Assembly: GCA_052035525.1 (NCBI GenBank)
Contig: JBPOHN010000012.1
Location: 208,784 to 272,783 of the forward strand
Length of the DNA: 64,000 nucleotides
From: Armatimonadota bacterium
GTDB lineage: Bacteria > Armatimonadota > UBA5829
Direction of reading: 5' to 3'
Shown here: piece by piece, positions 19,407 through 52,586 of the stretch
Numbering within the stretch: the stretch's first letter is position 1
How the letters are laid out: each line of letters starts with the position of its first letter
Translations under genes and position numbers: made by a program
The notes under the pieces: generated by a model
The model's database searches: none
Told to the model about the DNA's origin: nothing
Seen by the model: the letters and a program-made list of their open reading frames with translations, nothing else

Positions 19407-19436
19407 CTGGGTGGCGATTCTCGGATCGCCACCCAG
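19407..19436. repeat. REP-like palindrome, copy 1 (CTGGGTGGCGAT-tctcgg-ATCGCCACCCAG)
   Basis: Perfect 12-bp arms. Same family as copies at 31294, 32496, 33149 and 36232. Confidence 0.6.
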
Positions 19437-27898: not shown

Positions 27899-27946
27899 TT
27901 GACGGCGGTGCATCGGGCACATAGAATAGCAATGTAAACGTTTACA
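27899..27946 (+). promoter_or_regulatory. sigma70-like promoter (TTGACG-17-TAGAAT) with LacI-family palindromic operator TGTAAACGTTTACA (27933-27946)
   Basis: -35 at 27899-27904, -10 at 27922-27927. A perfect 14-bp palindrome sits 20 nt upstream of the lacI-family ATG. Confidence 0.6.
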
Positions 27947-27965
27947 TCACGCCAATGAGATCGTA

Positions 27966-29018
27966 ATGGCCAGGTTTGTCACAATACATGACGTAGCGGC
28001 TGATGCTCAGGTCAGCACCGCGACCGTTTCCAGGGTTCTGAACGAGCCCTGGCGAGTCAGCCCCGATGCCCGCGAACGTGTCACCGCCAGCATCGCCAAA
28101 CTCGGCTATACGCCCAACCTGCGAGCCCGCCTGCTCGCGCGCGGCGACTCCGGGACCATCTGCTTTCTGCTCTCTAACCGGCCATTCCTGCACTCCATTC
28201 ATACTCAGATGCTTCAAGGAGCCGCTGACCGGGCAAATGCGCTCGGCGTGCAGATAGTCTACGCCGCCTGCTCATATCTGCCGGATACGCCCCCCTCCGA
28301 GATCGAAATGCCGCGCATCCTCGCCGCGAGGGGTCTCATCGACGGCGTCATAGTCGCCGGCACCAACTACCCGAACATGCTACAGGCTATCGACGAGCTT
28401 GCCCTTCCGCGCGTGCTGTTCGGCACGAATCTGATCGCGCCCGGGCTCGATCGCGTTCCCGCCGCGATCTATGTAGACGATGAATCCGGCGGATATCTTG
28501 CCGCGAAGCACCTTATCTCGCTCGGGCACAAAGCCATCCGCTTCATCGGCGACGTCACGCTCCCGTGGTATCGCCGCAGGTACGAGGGGTGCGCCCGTGC
28601 GATGCGCGAAGCCGGCCTGGAAGTGCATCCGGCCATTGGTAAGCGCGATGCGACCGAGCAGACCATCACCGAATACGCCATGGGCGCAAGCGCGGTGAAC
28701 GAGCTCTGCGATCGCGGCGAGCCCTTCACCGCCATCTTCGCCGGCGGGGATATGGCCGCCCACGGAGCTATGCGCTCCCTTGCCGCCCGCGGACTGCGCG
28801 TGCCCGGCGACGTGAGCGTGGTAGGTTTCAACGACGAAGAGCTCGCGCAGATCGCGGAGCCTCCGCTGACCACTATCCGCATACCCACCGAGCAGATCGG
28901 CGCGCAGTGTGTAGATATGCTTCGCAAGATGCTTCAGGAGGATGCTGCCCTTGATGCGGCCACAGTACCGGTTGAGCTGATTGAGAGGGAGTCAACCGCA
29001 CCAATTCGTCATTCGTAA
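27966..29018 (+). CDS. LacI-family transcriptional regulator
   Basis: VTIHDVAADAQVSTATVSRVLN (HTH) plus a periplasmic-binding-fold C-domain. Confidence 0.9.
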   Translation: MARFVTIHDVAADAQVSTATVSRVLNEPWRVSPDARERVTASIAKLGYTPNLRARLLARGDSGTICFLLSNRPFLHSIHTQMLQGAADRANALGVQIVYAACSYLPDTPPSEIEMPRILAARGLIDGVIVAGTNYPNMLQAIDELALPRVLFGTNLIAPGLDRVPAAIYVDDESGGYLAAKHLISLGHKAIRFIGDVTLPWYRRRYEGCARAMREAGLEVHPAIGKRDATEQTITEYAMGASAVNELCDRGEPFTAIFAGGDMAAHGAMRSLAARGLRVPGDVSVVGFNDEELAQIAEPPLTTIRIPTEQIGAQCVDMLRKMLQEDAALDAATVPVELIERESTAPIRHS

Positions 29019-29046: not shown

Positions 29047-31065
29047 ATGCTTTCCAAAAACGCCGAAGTAATACTGAACCTCGTAATGGACGCAGACGAG
29101 CGCACCGAGGGAATGATGCCCGGTTGGGACATCGAACTCGCGCGCCAGAAGCTCCTCTTCTTCACTCTGCCAAAGGATTTCGCCTCAGACTTCCAGGCTA
29201 TCACTACCGCGCTGGATGCCAAGTTCGCCGGGAGCGGTTCGGCGCTTCGCGAGCGCTGCATATCATTCATGCTCGGCGTTGCTGAGTCACTCAGTTCACC
29301 TGTTGAGCTCGATCACAACCTCAAAGCCAGACCCCTCCACGGCGATGCCGCCCTCAAGTGCGTCAAGGACATCAAAGAGGCGGCGGCCGCGCTCGTGACC
29401 AAATGGGCGGGAATAGACAAGCAGGCGTTCCTCGCGGTTACAGCGCTCATCAAGCTTGAGGACATTGCCGCAAACAAGGGCGACAACCTCTTCGCCGGCT
29501 GGGCCCGCAAGTGGCAGAGCGATACCGGCCGCGACGCCTACGCGTCCCCCGAGGATTACCTCTCCTGCTTCACCGGCCTCTATCAGCGAGGCATGTATTA
29601 TCCGGACCTCTACTTCGCGCGCGAAGAAGGCAAGACCAAGACCCAGTTCTTCAACGACTACGGTCTTCAGGCCTCTCGCTGCCGCAGGATGGGCAGTCTC
29701 GGCGGTACAACGAACCCCGCGATTGCAGTAATGGGCGAGGACGATATGTCCGGCAAGGGCAACATCTGGGGCGAAGAGGCCACCAACTACATCCTCAAGT
29801 TCCCGAACAAGTGGCACGAGGTCCGCAGGGTCATCGCCCGGGAGCAGAAGGCGCGAAACGAAGCAGACGACTGGGGCGCTGTGAAGTTCACGGAGTGGGT
29901 CGTGGTGGACGCGATGCTCGGCCTGCGCTCGATCTTCCTCCTTCGCGGCTTGGGACGCGTGGCATTCCAGCTCAGGCCGGACTGGCACAACGACGAGAAG
30001 AAGCTCACCTGCGCCGGCGCGCAGATATACGAAATACTATGCGAGCGCGTCAGCGAGTTCGACGATATCCTCCTGGACGGCGCGGATGATCTCTATGTCA
30101 ACGCCTGCGGGGAGCGAATGGGAAAAGCCAACAACCACTTCAAGATCGCCTGCACGGGCCAGGCCTGCCTCAATACGGTCCGCAGCTTCAACGCGGGCTA
30201 CTCGGAGGCGTATCCGGACGCGGTCAAGGAGCGCATGTTCACGAACGTGACGCTCTCATACGAAGTCCCGCAGATGTACGCCGCCTCAATGGCCACCGAA
30301 AACGGCATCCGCGACTACGAAAAACGCACCGGTGAGAAGGTGGACGACGGCGAGGGCGGATCGGTCGTGACCAGCATGATCGGCCGCTTCAACGACGCAA
30401 TCCGCGACTATCGCGTGAAGGCGATCCTGGCGGCCCTGCCCGAGACGAGCGAGTTCAAGAAGATAGACCCGGCTTCAGTCAAGAAGCTCACCGATCAAGC
30501 GATCAACGATCCGGGCCTGATCGCGGAACTTGCCTCGGCGGGCATAGACTTCCGCCCGGAGGAAGAGGAGGACGCAATCGACCGCGCGGGCACGCTGGCG
30601 ACAAAGCGGGTCGTGATTCTCCTCGAGAAAGCAGGAGCCGGCGCTCCACTGCCTACTCCCCCCCTTGCGAAGGGGGGGCCGGGGGGGGTGCGCACCCGCA
30701 TCCTGACCGCCTCCAAGCGCAACTTCTTCCAGAACACGGAACTCCTCGACGTGCCGTTCTCAACCGACTTCGGCAACATCCAGCGGATGTATATGGACGT
30801 AATGCCGCTGGAGATCGACAACTGGAAGACGCTCTACGCGGACATGGACGAAAACGGCTACCCGGTCCCCGGCAGCATCTGGGCGAAGCGCCACGAAACG
30901 CTGCAGCGCATCTGGCCGGACTGGAACAAGTGCTTCGACTCCCCCGACGGGGTCAAACCCGAGGAATACGAAACGGCCTGCTACGTCGCGCCCACGCTCA
31001 AGCAGTTCATAGGCATGTGGAACGACAACATCGCCAGGGCGAAATCCTTCGCCGAGAGCGTGTAA
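29047..31065 (+). CDS. Hypothetical 672-aa protein with a transaldolase-like segment (GGTTNPAI ... ILKFP); carries an in-frame poly-C/G hairpin insertion
   Basis: TTNP motif followed ~40 aa later by ILKFPNK, similar to the transaldolase/FSA TTNPSL ... IKIP(K) pair. 30658-30688 encodes PLPTPPLAKGGPGGVRTR from a repeat element. Confidence 0.45.
   Translation: MLSKNAEVILNLVMDADERTEGMMPGWDIELARQKLLFFTLPKDFASDFQAITTALDAKFAGSGSALRERCISFMLGVAESLSSPVELDHNLKARPLHGDAALKCVKDIKEAAAALVTKWAGIDKQAFLAVTALIKLEDIAANKGDNLFAGWARKWQSDTGRDAYASPEDYLSCFTGLYQRGMYYPDLYFAREEGKTKTQFFNDYGLQASRCRRMGSLGGTTNPAIAVMGEDDMSGKGNIWGEEATNYILKFPNKWHEVRRVIAREQKARNEADDWGAVKFTEWVVVDAMLGLRSIFLLRGLGRVAFQLRPDWHNDEKKLTCAGAQIYEILCERVSEFDDILLDGADDLYVNACGERMGKANNHFKIACTGQACLNTVRSFNAGYSEAYPDAVKERMFTNVTLSYEVPQMYAASMATENGIRDYEKRTGEKVDDGEGGSVVTSMIGRFNDAIRDYRVKAILAALPETSEFKKIDPASVKKLTDQAINDPGLIAELASAGIDFRPEEEEDAIDRAGTLATKRVVILLEKAGAGAPLPTPPLAKGGPGGVRTRILTASKRNFFQNTELLDVPFSTDFGNIQRMYMDVMPLEIDNWKTLYADMDENGYPVPGSIWAKRHETLQRIWPDWNKCFDSPDGVKPEEYETACYVAPTLKQFIGMWNDNIARAKSFAESV
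30658..30688. repeat. Poly-C/poly-G hairpin element, copy A (C7-TTGCGAA-G7-CC-G8), inside a CDS
   Basis: Same architecture as copies at 31215-31250 and 52371-52401. Confidence 0.6.
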
Positions 31066-31214
31066 GAGACTCAGACGACGTTGCCAAGGGGGCTTCCCCC
31101 AGGAGTGTGTAAGAGCCGTCGGAGCCTGTAGGAGCCGCGACAGCGTGTAGGAACCCAAAGCATCTCGTCATCCCGAGCGGAGCGAGGGATCTGCCTGAGC
31201 GTGGACTCTGCTTG

Positions 31215-31250
31215 CTCCCTCCCCTGACGAAGGGGAGGGTGGGGGGGGGG
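31215..31250. repeat. Poly-C/poly-G hairpin element, copy B (CTCCCTCCCC-TGACGAA-GGGGAGGG-T-G10)
   Basis: Intergenic, downstream of the 29047 gene. Confidence 0.55.
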
Positions 31251-31293
31251 TAACGACACGCTGCGGCGCTACCTGTGACCGAAAGAATGCTAT

Positions 31294-31321
31294 CTGGGTG
31301 GCGATTTCCGAATCACCACCC
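31294..31321. repeat. REP-like palindrome, copy 2 (CTGGGTGGCGATTTCCGAATCACCACCC)
   Basis: Direct observation. Confidence 0.6.
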
Positions 31322-31394
31322 TCCCGTCAGCGTTGACAGACAACGCCAGCCGCGTGATAATGCACATGCACACCGCCGGCGCGCGAGGAGTCCT

Positions 31395-32495: not shown

Positions 32496-32554
32496 CTGGG
32501 TGGTGATTTCCGAATCACCACCCTACAACCCCACGGGAGGGATTTCCGAATCCC
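32496..32554. repeat. REP-like palindromes, copy 3 (CTGGGTGGTGATTTCCGAATCACCACCC, 32496-32523) plus mini-copy GGGATTTCCGAATCCC (32539-32554)
   Basis: Immediately upstream of the RAYT gene. Confidence 0.6.
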
Positions 32555-32572
32555 GCGTCTAACCCCCACCCA

Positions 32573-33115
32573 ATGGCAAACCGATACAAGGTCATCCAGG
32601 GAGGTCCCTATCCGCACCTGATCACTTGCACGATTGTCAGGTGGCTCCCCGTGTTCATCTCGGGCCCGTACTTCCGCGTGCTCACCGACAGCCTCCGGCA
32701 CTTGCGGGAAAACCGAGGCCTGATGATCCATGCGTATGTGATAATGCCCACCCACCTGCACGCCATAGTCACCGCGACCGAGGACGACCTGTCAGATATC
32801 GTGCGCGACTTCAAGAAGTTCACGTCCAGAGCGATCTACGAGCTTGCCGAGCAGTCAGGCAACGTCCTGCTTACGTGGATGTTCGAGCAGGCGGCAAAGA
32901 AGCAGCCTCACAGCCGCTTCAAGGTCTGGCAGGACGAGTTCCACCCCAAGGCTCTGTCCGGTGAGGAGATGATGAGGCAGAAGGCGGAGTATGTGCACGC
33001 GAATCCGGTTCGCAAAGAGCTGGTTATGGAGCCGGAGAAGTGGTATTACTCGAGCGCATCATTCTACGCGGGGAAAGCGACCGGGCCCGTGCCAATCGAC
33101 GTGCCTGAGTGGTAG
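32573..33115 (+). mobile_element. REP-associated tyrosine transposase (RAYT; IS200/IS605 TnpA-like Y1 HUH transposase)
   Basis: HUH motif IMPTHLHAIV and catalytic Tyr region EKWYYSSASFY. 180 aa; flanked on both sides by REP palindromes. Confidence 0.8.
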
Positions 33116-33120
33116 CTGTG

Positions 33121-33172
33121 CCGGATTCGGAAATCCGGCTGGAGCAGTGGGGTGGCGATTCGGAAACCGCGG
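33121..33172. repeat. REP-like elements, copy 4 (CCGGATTCGGAAATCCGG at 33121-33138, plus degenerate GGGGTGGCGATTCGGAAACCGCGG at 33149-33172)
   Basis: Immediately downstream of the RAYT gene. Confidence 0.5.
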
Positions 33173-36231: not shown

Positions 36232-36259
36232 GGGGTGGCGATTTCGGAATAGCCACCCC
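36232..36259. repeat. REP-like palindrome, copy 5 (GGGGTGGCGATTTCGGAATAGCCACCCC)
   Basis: Direct observation. Together with copy 4 it brackets the Dam/ParB-like/PRTase operon. Confidence 0.6.
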
Positions 36260-41003: not shown

Positions 41004-41047
41004 GATCCTTCGACGGCGCTCAGGATGCTGATTTCGCTGCGTCAGAG
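41004..41047. repeat. Long near-perfect palindrome GCGAAATCAGCGATCCT...AGGATGCTGATTTCGC
   Basis: ~17-bp arms; located between the Gfo/Idh/MocA gene end and the XRE-cupin gene start. Confidence 0.5.
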
Positions 41048-45111: not shown

Positions 45112-46047
45112 TCACCGCGGAGCCTTGCGGATGTAGACGGAGACGCCGGGGTAGGTGTTGGCGAGCGCGCGGCCCTTCTTATCACCAAGGACGCTGATGG
45201 CGGTCGAGAGGCCGTCGGAGGTGACGCCGTTTGGCGCAACGACGGTGACCGCGATCCTGTCGGTGAGGCCGAGGCCGGTTCTTGGGTCTACGATGTGCGA
45301 ATACCTCTTGCCGCCGATCTCAACGAACTGCTCAGTATCGCCTGATGATGACACGGCTGAGTTGGAGAGCGCAAGCATTCTGGGCTTGTCCAAGGATCGC
45401 GCCGCGTCTGCGTTGGCAATCTCGATCTCCCAGCCCTTCTTGCCAGGCGGCGGGCCGCTGACGACGATATCGCCGCCCATCTCCACAAGGGCACTCTTGA
45501 TTCCGTTAGCTTTGAGGGTGCGGATGGCCTCATCGCAGGCGTAGCCCTTGGCGATCCCGCCCAGATCGAGCTGCATTCCCGGCGTATCGAGCCTGACACG
45601 GGAGCCGATCGGATCGATGTGGACCTTCCGCCATCCGACAAGCTTGCGCGCCGCGGCGAGTTCATCCTTCGGTGGCAGTGTTCCCGCCTTGCGCGCCTTG
45701 CGCCAGAGCTTCACGACCGGGCCGATCGTCACATCGAATGCGCCGTTGGATCGCCGCGAGAGGTCCTGAGACTTGCGCAATATGAACAGCAGATCAGGGC
45801 TCACTTTGACCGCAGGCCCACCGGATGCCGCGGATAGACGCATCAGCTCGGAGTCCGGCCGATAATCGCTCATTGCGTCCTCAAGCTGCGCGATTCTGTC
45901 ATAAGCCGCCTTTGCTGACTTTTCGGCAGTAGATTCGTCAGGGGCGTACAGCACGATCCGCGCCCGCACGCCCATTGCGATCTCGGCGTACTCGAAGCGG
46001 TGCTGACCGTGCGCAACGGATGCTGTGGCTATGAGCAGGGCTAGCAT
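45112..46047 (-). CDS. apbE: FAD:protein FMN transferase
   Basis: ApbE family (...GGIAKGYA...). Start at MLALLIATASVAHG, a signal or lipoprotein-like N-terminus. Confidence 0.85.
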   Translation of the reverse strand: MLALLIATASVAHGQHRFEYAEIAMGVRARIVLYAPDESTAEKSAKAAYDRIAQLEDAMSDYRPDSELMRLSAASGGPAVKVSPDLLFILRKSQDLSRRSNGAFDVTIGPVVKLWRKARKAGTLPPKDELAAARKLVGWRKVHIDPIGSRVRLDTPGMQLDLGGIAKGYACDEAIRTLKANGIKSALVEMGGDIVVSGPPPGKKGWEIEIANADAARSLDKPRMLALSNSAVSSSGDTEQFVEIGGKRYSHIVDPRTGLGLTDRIAVTVVAPNGVTSDGLSTAISVLGDKKGRALANTYPGVSVYIRKAPR

Positions 46048-46191
46048 GGCCCAGCGAATGAACTCGCGGCTACGAGGGCGCAAAGTCCACCTCCGTGGAC
46101 CGGGGATTTGGATTCTCGGAGGGGGTCGCAAAGACCCCCTCTGACTGGATACGTAGATGCTGAGTCAAGTTCAGCATGACGGCCTAATCGG

Positions 46192-48496: not shown

Positions 48497-48663
48497 TCTC
48501 TTTCCCCCACTTGGAGATTGGTATCGTTATGCAACCGCAGCGCCCTTCGATCCTTACGCTCAGGATGCTCCTGGCTCGTGGCGCCGACCAATGCTTCAGG
48601 CTCATGCTCCGGGCTCGCCGAATAGCGATCCGGATACAGGATGCTGCGGGCTGCGTTCGGCTG

Positions 48664-51660: not shown

Positions 51661-52365
51661 ATGCGCAGAGCTAACAACGCCGCATTCACACTGATCGAGC
51701 TGCTGGTAGTAATGGCCATCATAGCAATACTCGCCGCCATTCTGTTCCCCGTGTTCGCTAACGCGAAGGAACGTGCCCGAATGGCCACCTGTACCTCAAA
51801 CGTCAAGACCCTGTCTTCAGCGTTTCGGATGTATGCCGATAGCAACGGCGGCAAGCTCCCGTGCGCTTTCGTGCTTTGGGTGACTCCTTTGGGCGGGCCG
51901 GACTGGTGCGGATGCGTGAACACGGGCAGCCCCGTTGTGAACATCGAAAGGTCAGCGATCTGGAACTATTGCGGCAAGAACAAGCGCATCTTCGTCTGTC
52001 CTACCGACAGCTTCATCGCGCCGACCAACGTGACGCCGGTTACTAAGGACTACCCCTTGTGCTATTCGATGAACTGGATGCTGGGGACGGAGAAGACTCA
52101 TCCTCAGTGCGGTGGAAGGGGCCGCGTCGCCATAGACACCGTCCGATATCCCACGAAAGTGCTGATGCTGATACACGAAGGCAGGCAGAATATCGACGAC
52201 GGGTGCTTCTACTGGGCAATCGGAGACGCCAGCCCCCGCAACCAACCGTCCAAGATCCACTATGGCGGCACGACCGCCTCCTACCTCGACGGTCACGCGA
52301 AGTGGTTGGGCTTCGACGCCTTCATCAAAGAGCGCGACAGCGGTTTGTGGGATCCTCTCAGATAG
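51661..52365 (+). CDS. Prepilin-type N-terminal cleavage/methylation domain protein with DUF1559
   Basis: AFTLIELLVVMAIIAILAAILFPVF, and a C-terminal H-x9-DG-like YLDGHAKW. Confidence 0.85.
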   Translation: MRRANNAAFTLIELLVVMAIIAILAAILFPVFANAKERARMATCTSNVKTLSSAFRMYADSNGGKLPCAFVLWVTPLGGPDWCGCVNTGSPVVNIERSAIWNYCGKNKRIFVCPTDSFIAPTNVTPVTKDYPLCYSMNWMLGTEKTHPQCGGRGRVAIDTVRYPTKVLMLIHEGRQNIDDGCFYWAIGDASPRNQPSKIHYGGTTASYLDGHAKWLGFDAFIKERDSGLWDPLR

Positions 52366-52370
52366 CGCTT

Positions 52371-52401
52371 CACCCCCTCAGTCCCCCCTTCGCAAGGGGG
52401 G
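52371..52401. repeat. Poly-C/poly-G hairpin element, copy C (CACCCCC-tcagt-CCCCCC-TTCGCAA-GGGGGG), reverse orientation
   Basis: Intergenic, just after the DUF1559 gene stop. Confidence 0.55.
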
Positions 52402-52586
52402 AAGCCACGTCTGCGCTCATCCTTAGCAGGCGAAGTCACATCTGCTTCCTAACTTGCCCGGTGGGAGCCGCGTCCTTGTCCGTGTGCCTGTGCTGTTATA
52501 CAATGGCAAACAGTTGTAGGCTGCCGGAGAGAAGATGCTGAGAATGCGCGTGTTCTGCCCAGCCCAGCCCTTGAGAGGAAGAGAAG

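Follow-up and report, generated by a model that had tools for sequence, protein, structure and literature searches.

The window analysed here, a stretch of 64,000 nucleotides (nt) from contig JBPOHN010000012.1 of an Armatimonadota bacterium, contains three copies of a short C- and G-rich hairpin repeat. One of the copies lies in frame inside the gene for a conserved protein of 672 amino acids (aa), and all three have the layout of an intrastrand triplex motif. The host gene, the segment inserted in it and the three copies are as follows.

29047..31065, plus strand: host gene, encoding the 672-aa conserved protein with a transaldolase-like fold
30631..30690, plus strand: lineage-specific inserted segment, codons 529-548 (AGAGAPLPTPPLAKGGPGGV)
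30657..30689, plus strand: triplex motif copy 1, inside the 672-aa gene on its coding strand
31217..31251, plus strand: triplex motif copy 2, intergenic, 150 nt 3' of the stop codon of the 672-aa gene
52369..52402, minus strand: triplex motif copy 3, inverted and partly decayed

Each unit spans 33-35 nt. In copy 1 a run of seven C (C7, 30658-30664) is followed by TT, the loop GCG (30667-30669), AA, G7 (30672-30678), CC, G8 (30681-30688) and T (30689); read as domains, this is a pyrimidine (Y) arm CCCCCCCTT at 30658-30666, the loop GCG, a purine (R) arm AAGGGGGGG at 30670-30678, the spacer CC and a third segment GGGGGGGGT at 30681-30689. Copy 2 consists of the Y arm CCCTCCCCT (31217-31225), the loop GACGA, the R arm AGGGGAGGG (31231-31239), T, G10 (31241-31250) and T (31251), its third segment falling within G10 plus T, and a promoter-like site lies downstream of it at 31333-31361. 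Copy 3 begins a few nt 3' of the stop codon of a pilin-like (N_methyl) gene (51661..52365). Its plus-strand sequence is C5 (52373-52377), TCAGT, C6 (52383-52388), TT, CGC, AA and G6 (52396-52401); the minus strand has (T)CCCCCCTT gcg AAGGGGGG(A) ctga GGGGGT. An earlier note on this DNA had described three loci with one shared architecture in both orientations, and all three are indeed present, copies 1 and 2 on the plus strand and copy 3 on the minus strand. The order of C-run, arm, loop, arm and downstream G-run that it gave for all of them is correct for copies 1 and 2, whereas in copy 3, because this copy is inverted, the extra run is the C5 upstream and not a G-run downstream.

Chance would give 0.24 occurrences of the hairpin pattern C6TT-N3-AAG6 per window, far fewer than the three loci present. 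A three-domain scan with ITxF-like class II rules, which required a stem of 8 or more, allowed one mismatched triplet at most and set the loops to 1-7 and 1-6 nt, returned three sites in the window, exactly the reported copies. In 20 shuffles preserving dinucleotides it returned none, so the motif is commoner here than in scrambled sequence. Copy 1 is scored as a 9-nt stem with nine triplets, one of them mismatched; in copy 2 eight of nine triplets are matched, and copy 3 has an 8-nt stem, one mismatch and a second loop of 6 nt. As a DNA hairpin, copy 1 has an energy of about -10 to -11 kcal/mol; DNA folding z-scores are uninformative for homopolymer-rich sequence of this kind. Across the whole window no Rfam family was matched. 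A hairpin of opposite polarity, GAGGGGGTC-gcaaa-GACCCCCTC, lies at 46119-46141 with its purine arm first, overlapping the end of the open reading frame (ORF) 45112..46131; it is not a class II motif.

The G-run that follows the hairpin is the mirror image of the purine arm and an integral part of the unit, which therefore runs from a pyrimidine arm through a loop of 3-5 nt, the complementary purine arm and a spacer of 1-6 nt to a G-rich third segment, where each G of the purine arm stays G and each A stays A or becomes T. Searching other genomes for the hairpin pattern uncovered a dispersed family in reference genomes and metagenomes, in agreement with the repeat family proposed in the earlier note. 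These scans were seeded with one hairpin pattern, and the counts that follow refer to the matches listed, which are a sample and not a census. Most of the reference-genome matches come from Cyanobacteria, the others from Planctomycetota, Nitrospirota, Latescibacterota, Calidithermus and further groups. In 145 of the 156 matches one side of the hairpin has a G-run or C-run at a distance of 1-6 nt, and the metagenome scan with GCG/ACG loops gives the same picture, the orientation of the loop correlating with the side on which the tail lies. Tail runs follow stem runs in length (5/5 in 25 of 26 cases, 6/6 in 111 of 139, 7/7 in 52 of 84), and in 95-98 % the base that comes next is A or T. Where the purine arm is asymmetric, as in AAGGAGGGGG-tca-GGGGGAGGTT, AAGGGGGGAGAGGG-tcg-GGGTGAGGGGGGAT and AGGAGGGGG-ca-GGGGGAGGT, the tail is its mirror, neither a direct copy nor a complement (mirror beats direct 94 vs 36), and the observed mirror score of 0.742 lies above every flank permutation (permuted-flank null 0.679 +/- 0.005). 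A complete three-domain motif surrounds 278 of the 313 hairpin-only seeds from other genomes and metagenomes. It is this combination of run-length tracking, mirror symmetry and completeness of the motif that makes the tail part of the unit. For the earlier note the G-runs had raised the possibility of a G-quadruplex or i-motif; the run is real, but it is better described as a mirror repeat, the third strand of a triplex motif.

Two simpler accounts of the tail were rejected. Pairing of the C arm with the distal G-run would not account for tails such as GGGTGAGGT, which are mirror images and not complements. The tail might also be the outer arm of a longer palindrome, and two-sided copies make up 20 of the 156 matches, but their spacers are mostly non-complementary and one-sided copies dominate. 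A two-sided copy, ttttgcaagtttttttacaCCCCCCtgtgtCCCCCCTTGCGAAGGGGGGaaagagaGGGGTt, has near-identical flanks in nine metagenome contigs (L130, L168, L176, L178, L190, L202, L205, L234 and L246), which suggests a conserved locus in one widespread lineage.

Pyrimidine and purine arms with a mirrored third segment identify the unit as a class II intrastrand purine-motif triplex with the triplets C-G·G, T-A·A and T-A·T, and the copies are new members of this known class of repeats. Each of the three has, in 5'-3' order on one strand, the pyrimidine arm, the purine arm and the reverse-Hoogsteen segment that ITxF looks for (Holder et al. 2015), and each falls within its range of 6-15 triplets, at most one mismatch and loops of 1-6 nt (nine triplets with one mismatch in copies 1 and 2, eight with one in copy 3). 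The E. coli repeats of this class were named BoxC and later PIT elements (Hoyne et al. 2000; PMC4666352), and intrastrand triplex motifs have been surveyed in 5246 genomes (Holder et al. 2015; PMC4666352). The isolated strand of the E. coli motif TM_ECO folds in vitro into a stable structure that is a triplex and not a quadruplex by nuclear magnetic resonance (NMR), while the triplex was not detected in vivo by dimethyl sulfate (DMS) footprinting (PMC4666352). PIT elements have no promoter or terminator activity; in E. coli K-12 TM_ECO is always intergenic, and a transposase was never found nearby (PMC4666352). Triplex motifs are associated with local variability between strains, and G/C-rich ones are very abundant in Microcystis, Anabaena, Nostoc and Thermus (PMC4666352).

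The window copies share with BoxC/PIT/TM_ECO the class II order on one strand, G/C-rich stems of 8-10 nt, short loops with second loops of the TTA or CCG kind, dispersal in both orientations with occasional inverted pairs, the lack of a nearby transposase (the RAYT gene is discussed below) and local variability between strains. They differ from these elements in that their arms are C/G homopolymers closed by TT/AA rather than CCCTCNCCC, in that their host is of Armatimonadota type, and in that one copy lies in frame inside a conserved ORF, whereas the K-12 elements are always intergenic. The strict BoxC/TM_ECO consensus, CCCTCNCCC N3-6 GGGNGAGGG N3 GGGNGAGGG, has no match in the window; exact matches occur in loci L215 and L218, beside the poly-C/G variant, and near-consensus forms such as CCCTCTCCT-N3-AGGAGAGGG-N2-GGGGTGAGGT occur in the related Armatimonadota-type loci L003, L006 and L008. 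Many of the matches listed belong to the G/C-rich motifs of Cyanobacteria (Microcystis, Nostoc and Anabaena in the ITxF survey), which have the layout C6TT-NNN-AAG6-spacer-G6-(A)T and are found as singlets, as inverted pairs and in one tandem array of 12 units. In the cyanobacterial copies the loops are A/T, the spacers TTA or CTA and the ends GATC, whereas those in the window have loops of GCG or ACG type and a terminal G-run plus T, as do copies from Planctomycetota and soil metagenomes. The array (L072 6482-6950, on a Microcystis ichthyoblabe chromosome) consists of twelve head-to-tail 37-nt triplex units CCCCCCTTATCAAGGGGGGACTAAGGGGGGATCGGCA without spacers. The mirror repeats of H-DNA are likewise homopurine/homopyrimidine, form purine-motif triplets and are linked to genetic instability; however, two blocks in duplex DNA under supercoiling suffice for H-DNA, whereas the window motif has three blocks on one strand that would fold back in single-stranded DNA. 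A literature search by sequence (AAGGGGGG, GGGGGGATC) and by the encoded peptides returned nothing relevant.

The gene that harbors copy 1 encodes a protein in which no Pfam domain was matched, and its fold was therefore assigned through AlphaFold and Foldseek. The AlphaFold model has a mean predicted local distance difference test (pLDDT) score of 91.8 and a predicted template modelling (pTM) score of 0.90, and it matches transaldolases with an E value of 8e-9. There are 121 homologues, and the named ones come from Armatimonadota metagenome-assembled genomes. At the insert site more than 100 orthologues read ...LLEKNEGLAR-TR... in the alignment; only nine of about 115 aligned orthologues have an insert. 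These are the nine closest, with 74-86 % identity, and they form one clade nested among insert-less sequences in a neighbour-joining tree. The alignment thereby confirms the suspicion in the earlier note that the PLAKGG segment is an insertion confined to one small clade. The inserted segment stands in place of the 5-residue NEGL(A/P) loop of the insert-less orthologues, a net gain of 15 codons; the clade member P0009 has an empty site, GAGAAGAACGAAGGCTTGCCGCGC, relative to which the window is longer by 15 codons, and an empty site is seen in L249.

Copy 1 encodes PLPTPPLAKGGPGGVRTR (residues 534-551) and, as the earlier note had stated, does not break the frame of the 672-aa ORF. The only stretch of the AlphaFold model with pLDDT below 50 is residues 531-546, i.e., the insert, and copy 1 is predicted to sit in a disordered surface loop. 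All six frames of the 39 nt around it are free of stop codons, and each gives a Pro/Gly-rich peptide. That copy 1 is tolerated is explained by these properties together: it is in frame, free of stop codons in six frames, codes for a Pro/Gly-rich peptide and lies in a loop predicted to be disordered at the surface. Among the loci retrieved from the listed matches, 44 long ORFs span a seed hairpin. In all seven of the large genes tested elsewhere the motif is in frame, with Pfam domains on both sides of it or around it; these genes include nonribosomal peptide synthetase (NRPS) adenylation domains, a histidine kinase, a Ser/Thr kinase with an AAA domain, and CHAT proteins. Rickettsia palindromic elements (RPEs) are about 100-150 bp long, restricted to Rickettsia and devoid of triplex symmetry. 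They resemble copy 1 as in-frame palindromic repeats in genes of functional proteins, absent from orthologues and located at tolerated places (PMC3733652). Copy 1 thus behaves like an RPE, being an in-frame insertion in a conserved gene that is absent from orthologues, but it differs in size and family, with a unit of 33-35 nt and host genes that have Armatimonadota-type homologues. In-frame copies within genes are unmentioned in Holder et al. 2015, and our literature search found no paper on them.

Comparison of eight orthologous loci reveals that the site of copy 1 has been used by two kinds of repeat. Triplex motifs occupy the same codon position in L001, L003, L005 (two tandem 42-nt units) and L006, and a second repeat, CTGAGC..GTCGAAGGG, occupies it in L002, L004, L007 (five units in tandem) and L008 (two units). 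The left part of the insert (AGxGAPL, AELGQPL, GQGAPL) is common to sister lineages, which differ in the repeat that follows. This indicates that the right part of the insert was replaced several times, and the shared left parts lend independent support to the pairings in the tree. Both families are also found between genes: the triplex family as copies 2 and 3, and the second family at 41006-41023 and 48543-48563 in the window and once in L005. The 5' region of the LacI gene, from the conserved operator to the start codon, carries arrays of two or three triplex units in L003 and L006 and none in the window, L001 and L002. The triplex motifs have no visible terminal inverted repeats and no visible target-site duplication. 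Filled and empty sites likewise show no target-site duplication and no ends beyond the hairpin, and the compared sites lack the terminal inverted repeats and target-site duplication of a MITE, although the diverged flanks make this a weak test.

The second family has the form (AGCATC)CTGAGC..N..GTCGAAGG(A/G); both window copies are on the minus strand, and the family also occurs in L002, L004, L005, L007 and L008. The two intergenic copies were found with a gapped regular expression, whereas a search allowing three mismatches gave only chance-like matches in coding DNA. The copy at 41006 lies within a longer palindrome, GCGAAATCAGC...GCTGATTTCGC, and the core CGAAGG is common to the triplex and CTGAGC..CGAAGG families. 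Upstream of the LacI-family gene of the window (27966..29018), a promoter-like TTGAC..TAGAAT followed by the perfect palindrome AATGTAAACGTTTACAT lies at 27899-27947 and is invariant in five related loci; the palindrome is probably the operator of the LacI-family regulator itself.

Variation is also found among near-identical strains. Four independent assemblies (L329-L332) match the window at 99.4-99.8 % identity, and three of them (L330-L332) have the same C7/G7/G8 form of copy 1. In L329, copy 1 has G8 for G7, and the resulting +1 frameshift leads to a 688-aa product, P0123, whose last 125 residues are replaced (L329 2708-2800); the extra G may reflect homopolymer slippage or a sequencing error. 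Copy 2 reads CCCTCCCCT-TACGA-AGGGGAGGG-TT-GGGGTGGGGT in all four assemblies, a perfect 9/9 mirror. It ends there in ...AGGGGAGGGttGGGGTGGGGT, with TGGGGTGGGG at the position of the G10 run of the window; this run and three nearby substitutions are found in the window only, compared with the four other assemblies. A 17-nt tandem unit at 31180-31213 varies in copy number, with two units in the window and three in L330-L332. The five near-identical strains vary at nine sites in about 5 kb, eight of which are no more than 40 nt from copy 1 or 2, a concentration that fits the reported link of triplex motifs with local instability. Instability marks both the site and the DNA around it, with different repeats at one codon, tandem duplication of units and changes in homopolymer length. 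The intergenic stretch 3' of the 672-aa gene (31060-31215) is a mosaic of small repeats, with four copies of about 11 nt, (G/C)TGTA(A/G)GA(G/A)(A/C)C, at 31060, 31107, 31126 and 31145, and a hairpin with the purine arm first, GGGGGCTTCCCCC, at 31088-31100.

Taken as a whole, these observations are probably best explained by copies of class II purine-motif intrastrand triplex repeats (BoxC, PIT or TM elements) that are prone to form structure and locally unstable. Where the strand becomes single-stranded in replication, repair or transcription, the first two arms would form a hairpin, and the third segment could then enter the major groove antiparallel to the purine arm and form G·G-C and A/T·A-T triplets. 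That the window copies can fold in this way is suggested by the behavior of the E. coli TM_ECO oligonucleotides and by the symmetry of the sequence. Replication stalling, slippage and template switching at the folded structure could account for the local instability; gene conversion between dispersed copies at this structure would be another source, and a dedicated transposase is less favored than either. The element would behave as a structure-prone small repeat that is polymorphic for insertion and deletion. The earlier note had spoken of a miniature mobile or repetitive element tolerated within a gene. The repeat tolerated in frame in a disordered loop stands, and presence/absence polymorphism and turnover are evident at the site; mobility of the transposon type is not demonstrated.

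Several points weigh against this explanation. Triplex formation is deduced from sequence symmetry, and the triplex of TM_ECO itself went undetected in vivo; copy 3 and the window version of copy 2 each carry one mismatched triplet. The mechanism of spread and turnover is one that we infer. The neighbour-joining tree has no support values, many of the listed copies are related, so that the statistics are not fully independent, and the collection of motifs is a sample obtained with one hairpin seed. The G7/G8 difference and the G10 run, judged from assemblies alone, could be sequencing or assembly errors.

An alternative explanation is that the hairpins are elements of the REP/REPIN type, moved by single-stranded cut-and-paste through a RAYT (Y1/HUH) transposase, with the G-run as a tag of the GTAG type. 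A Y1_Tnp (RAYT-like) gene does lie 1.5 kb downstream of the 672-aa gene (32573..33115), with conserved homologues near the same gene in L005 and L006. The motifs also occur in the manner of REPs, as singlets, inverted doublets (L005 19526-19601) and tandem arrays; like REP/REPIN they are short G/C-rich palindromes located mostly just 3' of genes, some in inverted pairs and some in ORFs, and in-frame REPs in genes are known (PMC3733652). However, the RAYT genes of the window, L005 and L006 are flanked by a different palindrome family, GGGTGGYGATTTCCGAATCRCCACCC, which has dispersed copies of its own, and for this reason RAYT was rejected as the main mobilizer of the triplex motifs. The copies lack the REP tag GTAG or CGTC, their flanks being spacer, G-run and then A or T, and a mirrored third segment is not a feature of REPs. 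The 8-kb stretches that surround 240 other copies yielded no RAYT homologue, and no transposase has ever been found near TM_ECO (Holder et al.; PMC4666352). We regard mobilization by RAYT as unlikely. The missing GTAG-type tag and the different flanks of the RAYT gene favor slippage, template switching or conversion as the presumed route of spread and turnover of the triplex repeats. Phages give no sign of having carried them either, as only 78 stretches with the seed were found among 2.9 million viral contigs. One putative viral contig, L322 (IMG/VR contig 3300032160_001195), contains 11 copies of the hairpin seed.

The RAYT gene lies within what appears as a classic REP-RAYT unit (32498-33170), between inverted palindromes GGGTGGYGATTTCCGAATCRCCACCC and accompanied by GGGATTTCCGAATCCC and GCCGGATTCGGAAATCCGGC; the same arrangement is found in L005 and L006. 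Dispersed copies of the GGGTGGYGATTTCCGAATCRCCACCC family are located in the window at 19409-19434, 31296-31321 and 36233-36258.

A more far-reaching possibility, which we consider improbable, is that triplex folding is itself under selection, as a recognition structure for structure-guided copying or for a cassette exchange that swaps small repeats at preferred sites, including genes. The mirrored third strand is conserved across phyla in its A/T positions and run lengths, which on this reading would point to selection on the folding. If this were the case, then the swapping of small repeats of the triplex and CTGAGC..CGAAGG families would diversify surface loops, and the homopolymer runs would switch genes on and off.

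It is very unlikely that the copies act as RNA, as terminators or as mRNA-stabilizing hairpins at gene ends. Copies 2 and 3 lie shortly 3' of the stop codons of plus-strand genes, and the RNA hairpins are stable (about -21 kcal/mol), but no T-run follows either copy, as an intrinsic terminator would have, and a terminator scan was silent at both. The two intergenic copies are oppositely oriented, and this, together with the missing T-run, led us to reject the terminator. Another copy is intragenic, as are many elsewhere, and there is no Rfam match in the window. In addition, PIT elements lack promoter and terminator activity, purine-motif triplexes are reported not to form in RNA (PMC4666352), and a hairpin alone leaves the mirrored third segment unexplained.

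That the G-runs form G-quadruplexes and the C strand i-motifs, which regulate or destabilize the locus, is highly unlikely. A canonical quadruplex motif (four tracts of G3 or more, 1-7 nt apart) is formally possible in copies 1 and 2 if long runs are split (G7 plus G8 in the former, GGGG/GGG/G10 in the latter), and G-rich triplex sequences can fold as quadruplexes too (PMC4666352). Copy 3, however, cannot provide four G3 tracts, and copy 2 of the sister strains reads GGGTGGGGT. Moreover, in hundreds of the copies listed the A positions are mirrored by A/T and the run lengths match the stem, neither of which a quadruplex needs, and TM_ECO is a triplex and not a quadruplex by NMR (PMC4666352). 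That the peptide is selected as a flexible Pro/Gly linker with an incidental palindrome, or that the runs are assembly artefacts, is scarcely credible: the segment is a disordered loop in the AlphaFold model, a single G sets one assembly apart and only the window has the G10 run, but the same DNA unit occurs in non-coding DNA of the window and in many phyla, the ortholog peptides at the site are unrelated (PPLAKGG, PEPVEGS, SSPQGRIEG, tandem QPSTLSSPQDEN), the hairpin is retained despite differing arm sequences, and the C7/G7/G8 form recurs in three further assemblies.

For the class II triplex repeats, the unusual features of this locus are the in-frame copy, a one-codon hot spot that two repeat families share, and the clustering of differences between strains at the motifs. 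Among closely related genomes, one codon position in a conserved gene is empty or holds a triplex motif, the second repeat family or tandem copies. This makes the locus a natural test bed for the spread and role of repeats of the BoxC/PIT/TM type, a question that has stood since the 1990s. Dense sampling of the lineage could reveal the exact ends and the direction of the events, and put the proposed link between triplex motifs and instability in coding sequence to the test. On the practical side, the motifs account for many odd peptides of the PPLxKGGxGG type in predicted proteins, and assemblies are likely to suffer homopolymer frameshifts at them.

The region downstream of the 672-aa gene looks like a variable island. 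A PRTase-CE gene (PF24390; 33249-34181, minus strand) adjoins the RAYT gene, the gene content there differs among all related loci, and restriction-modification genes are among the downstream neighbors of the 672-aa gene in L007 and L249.

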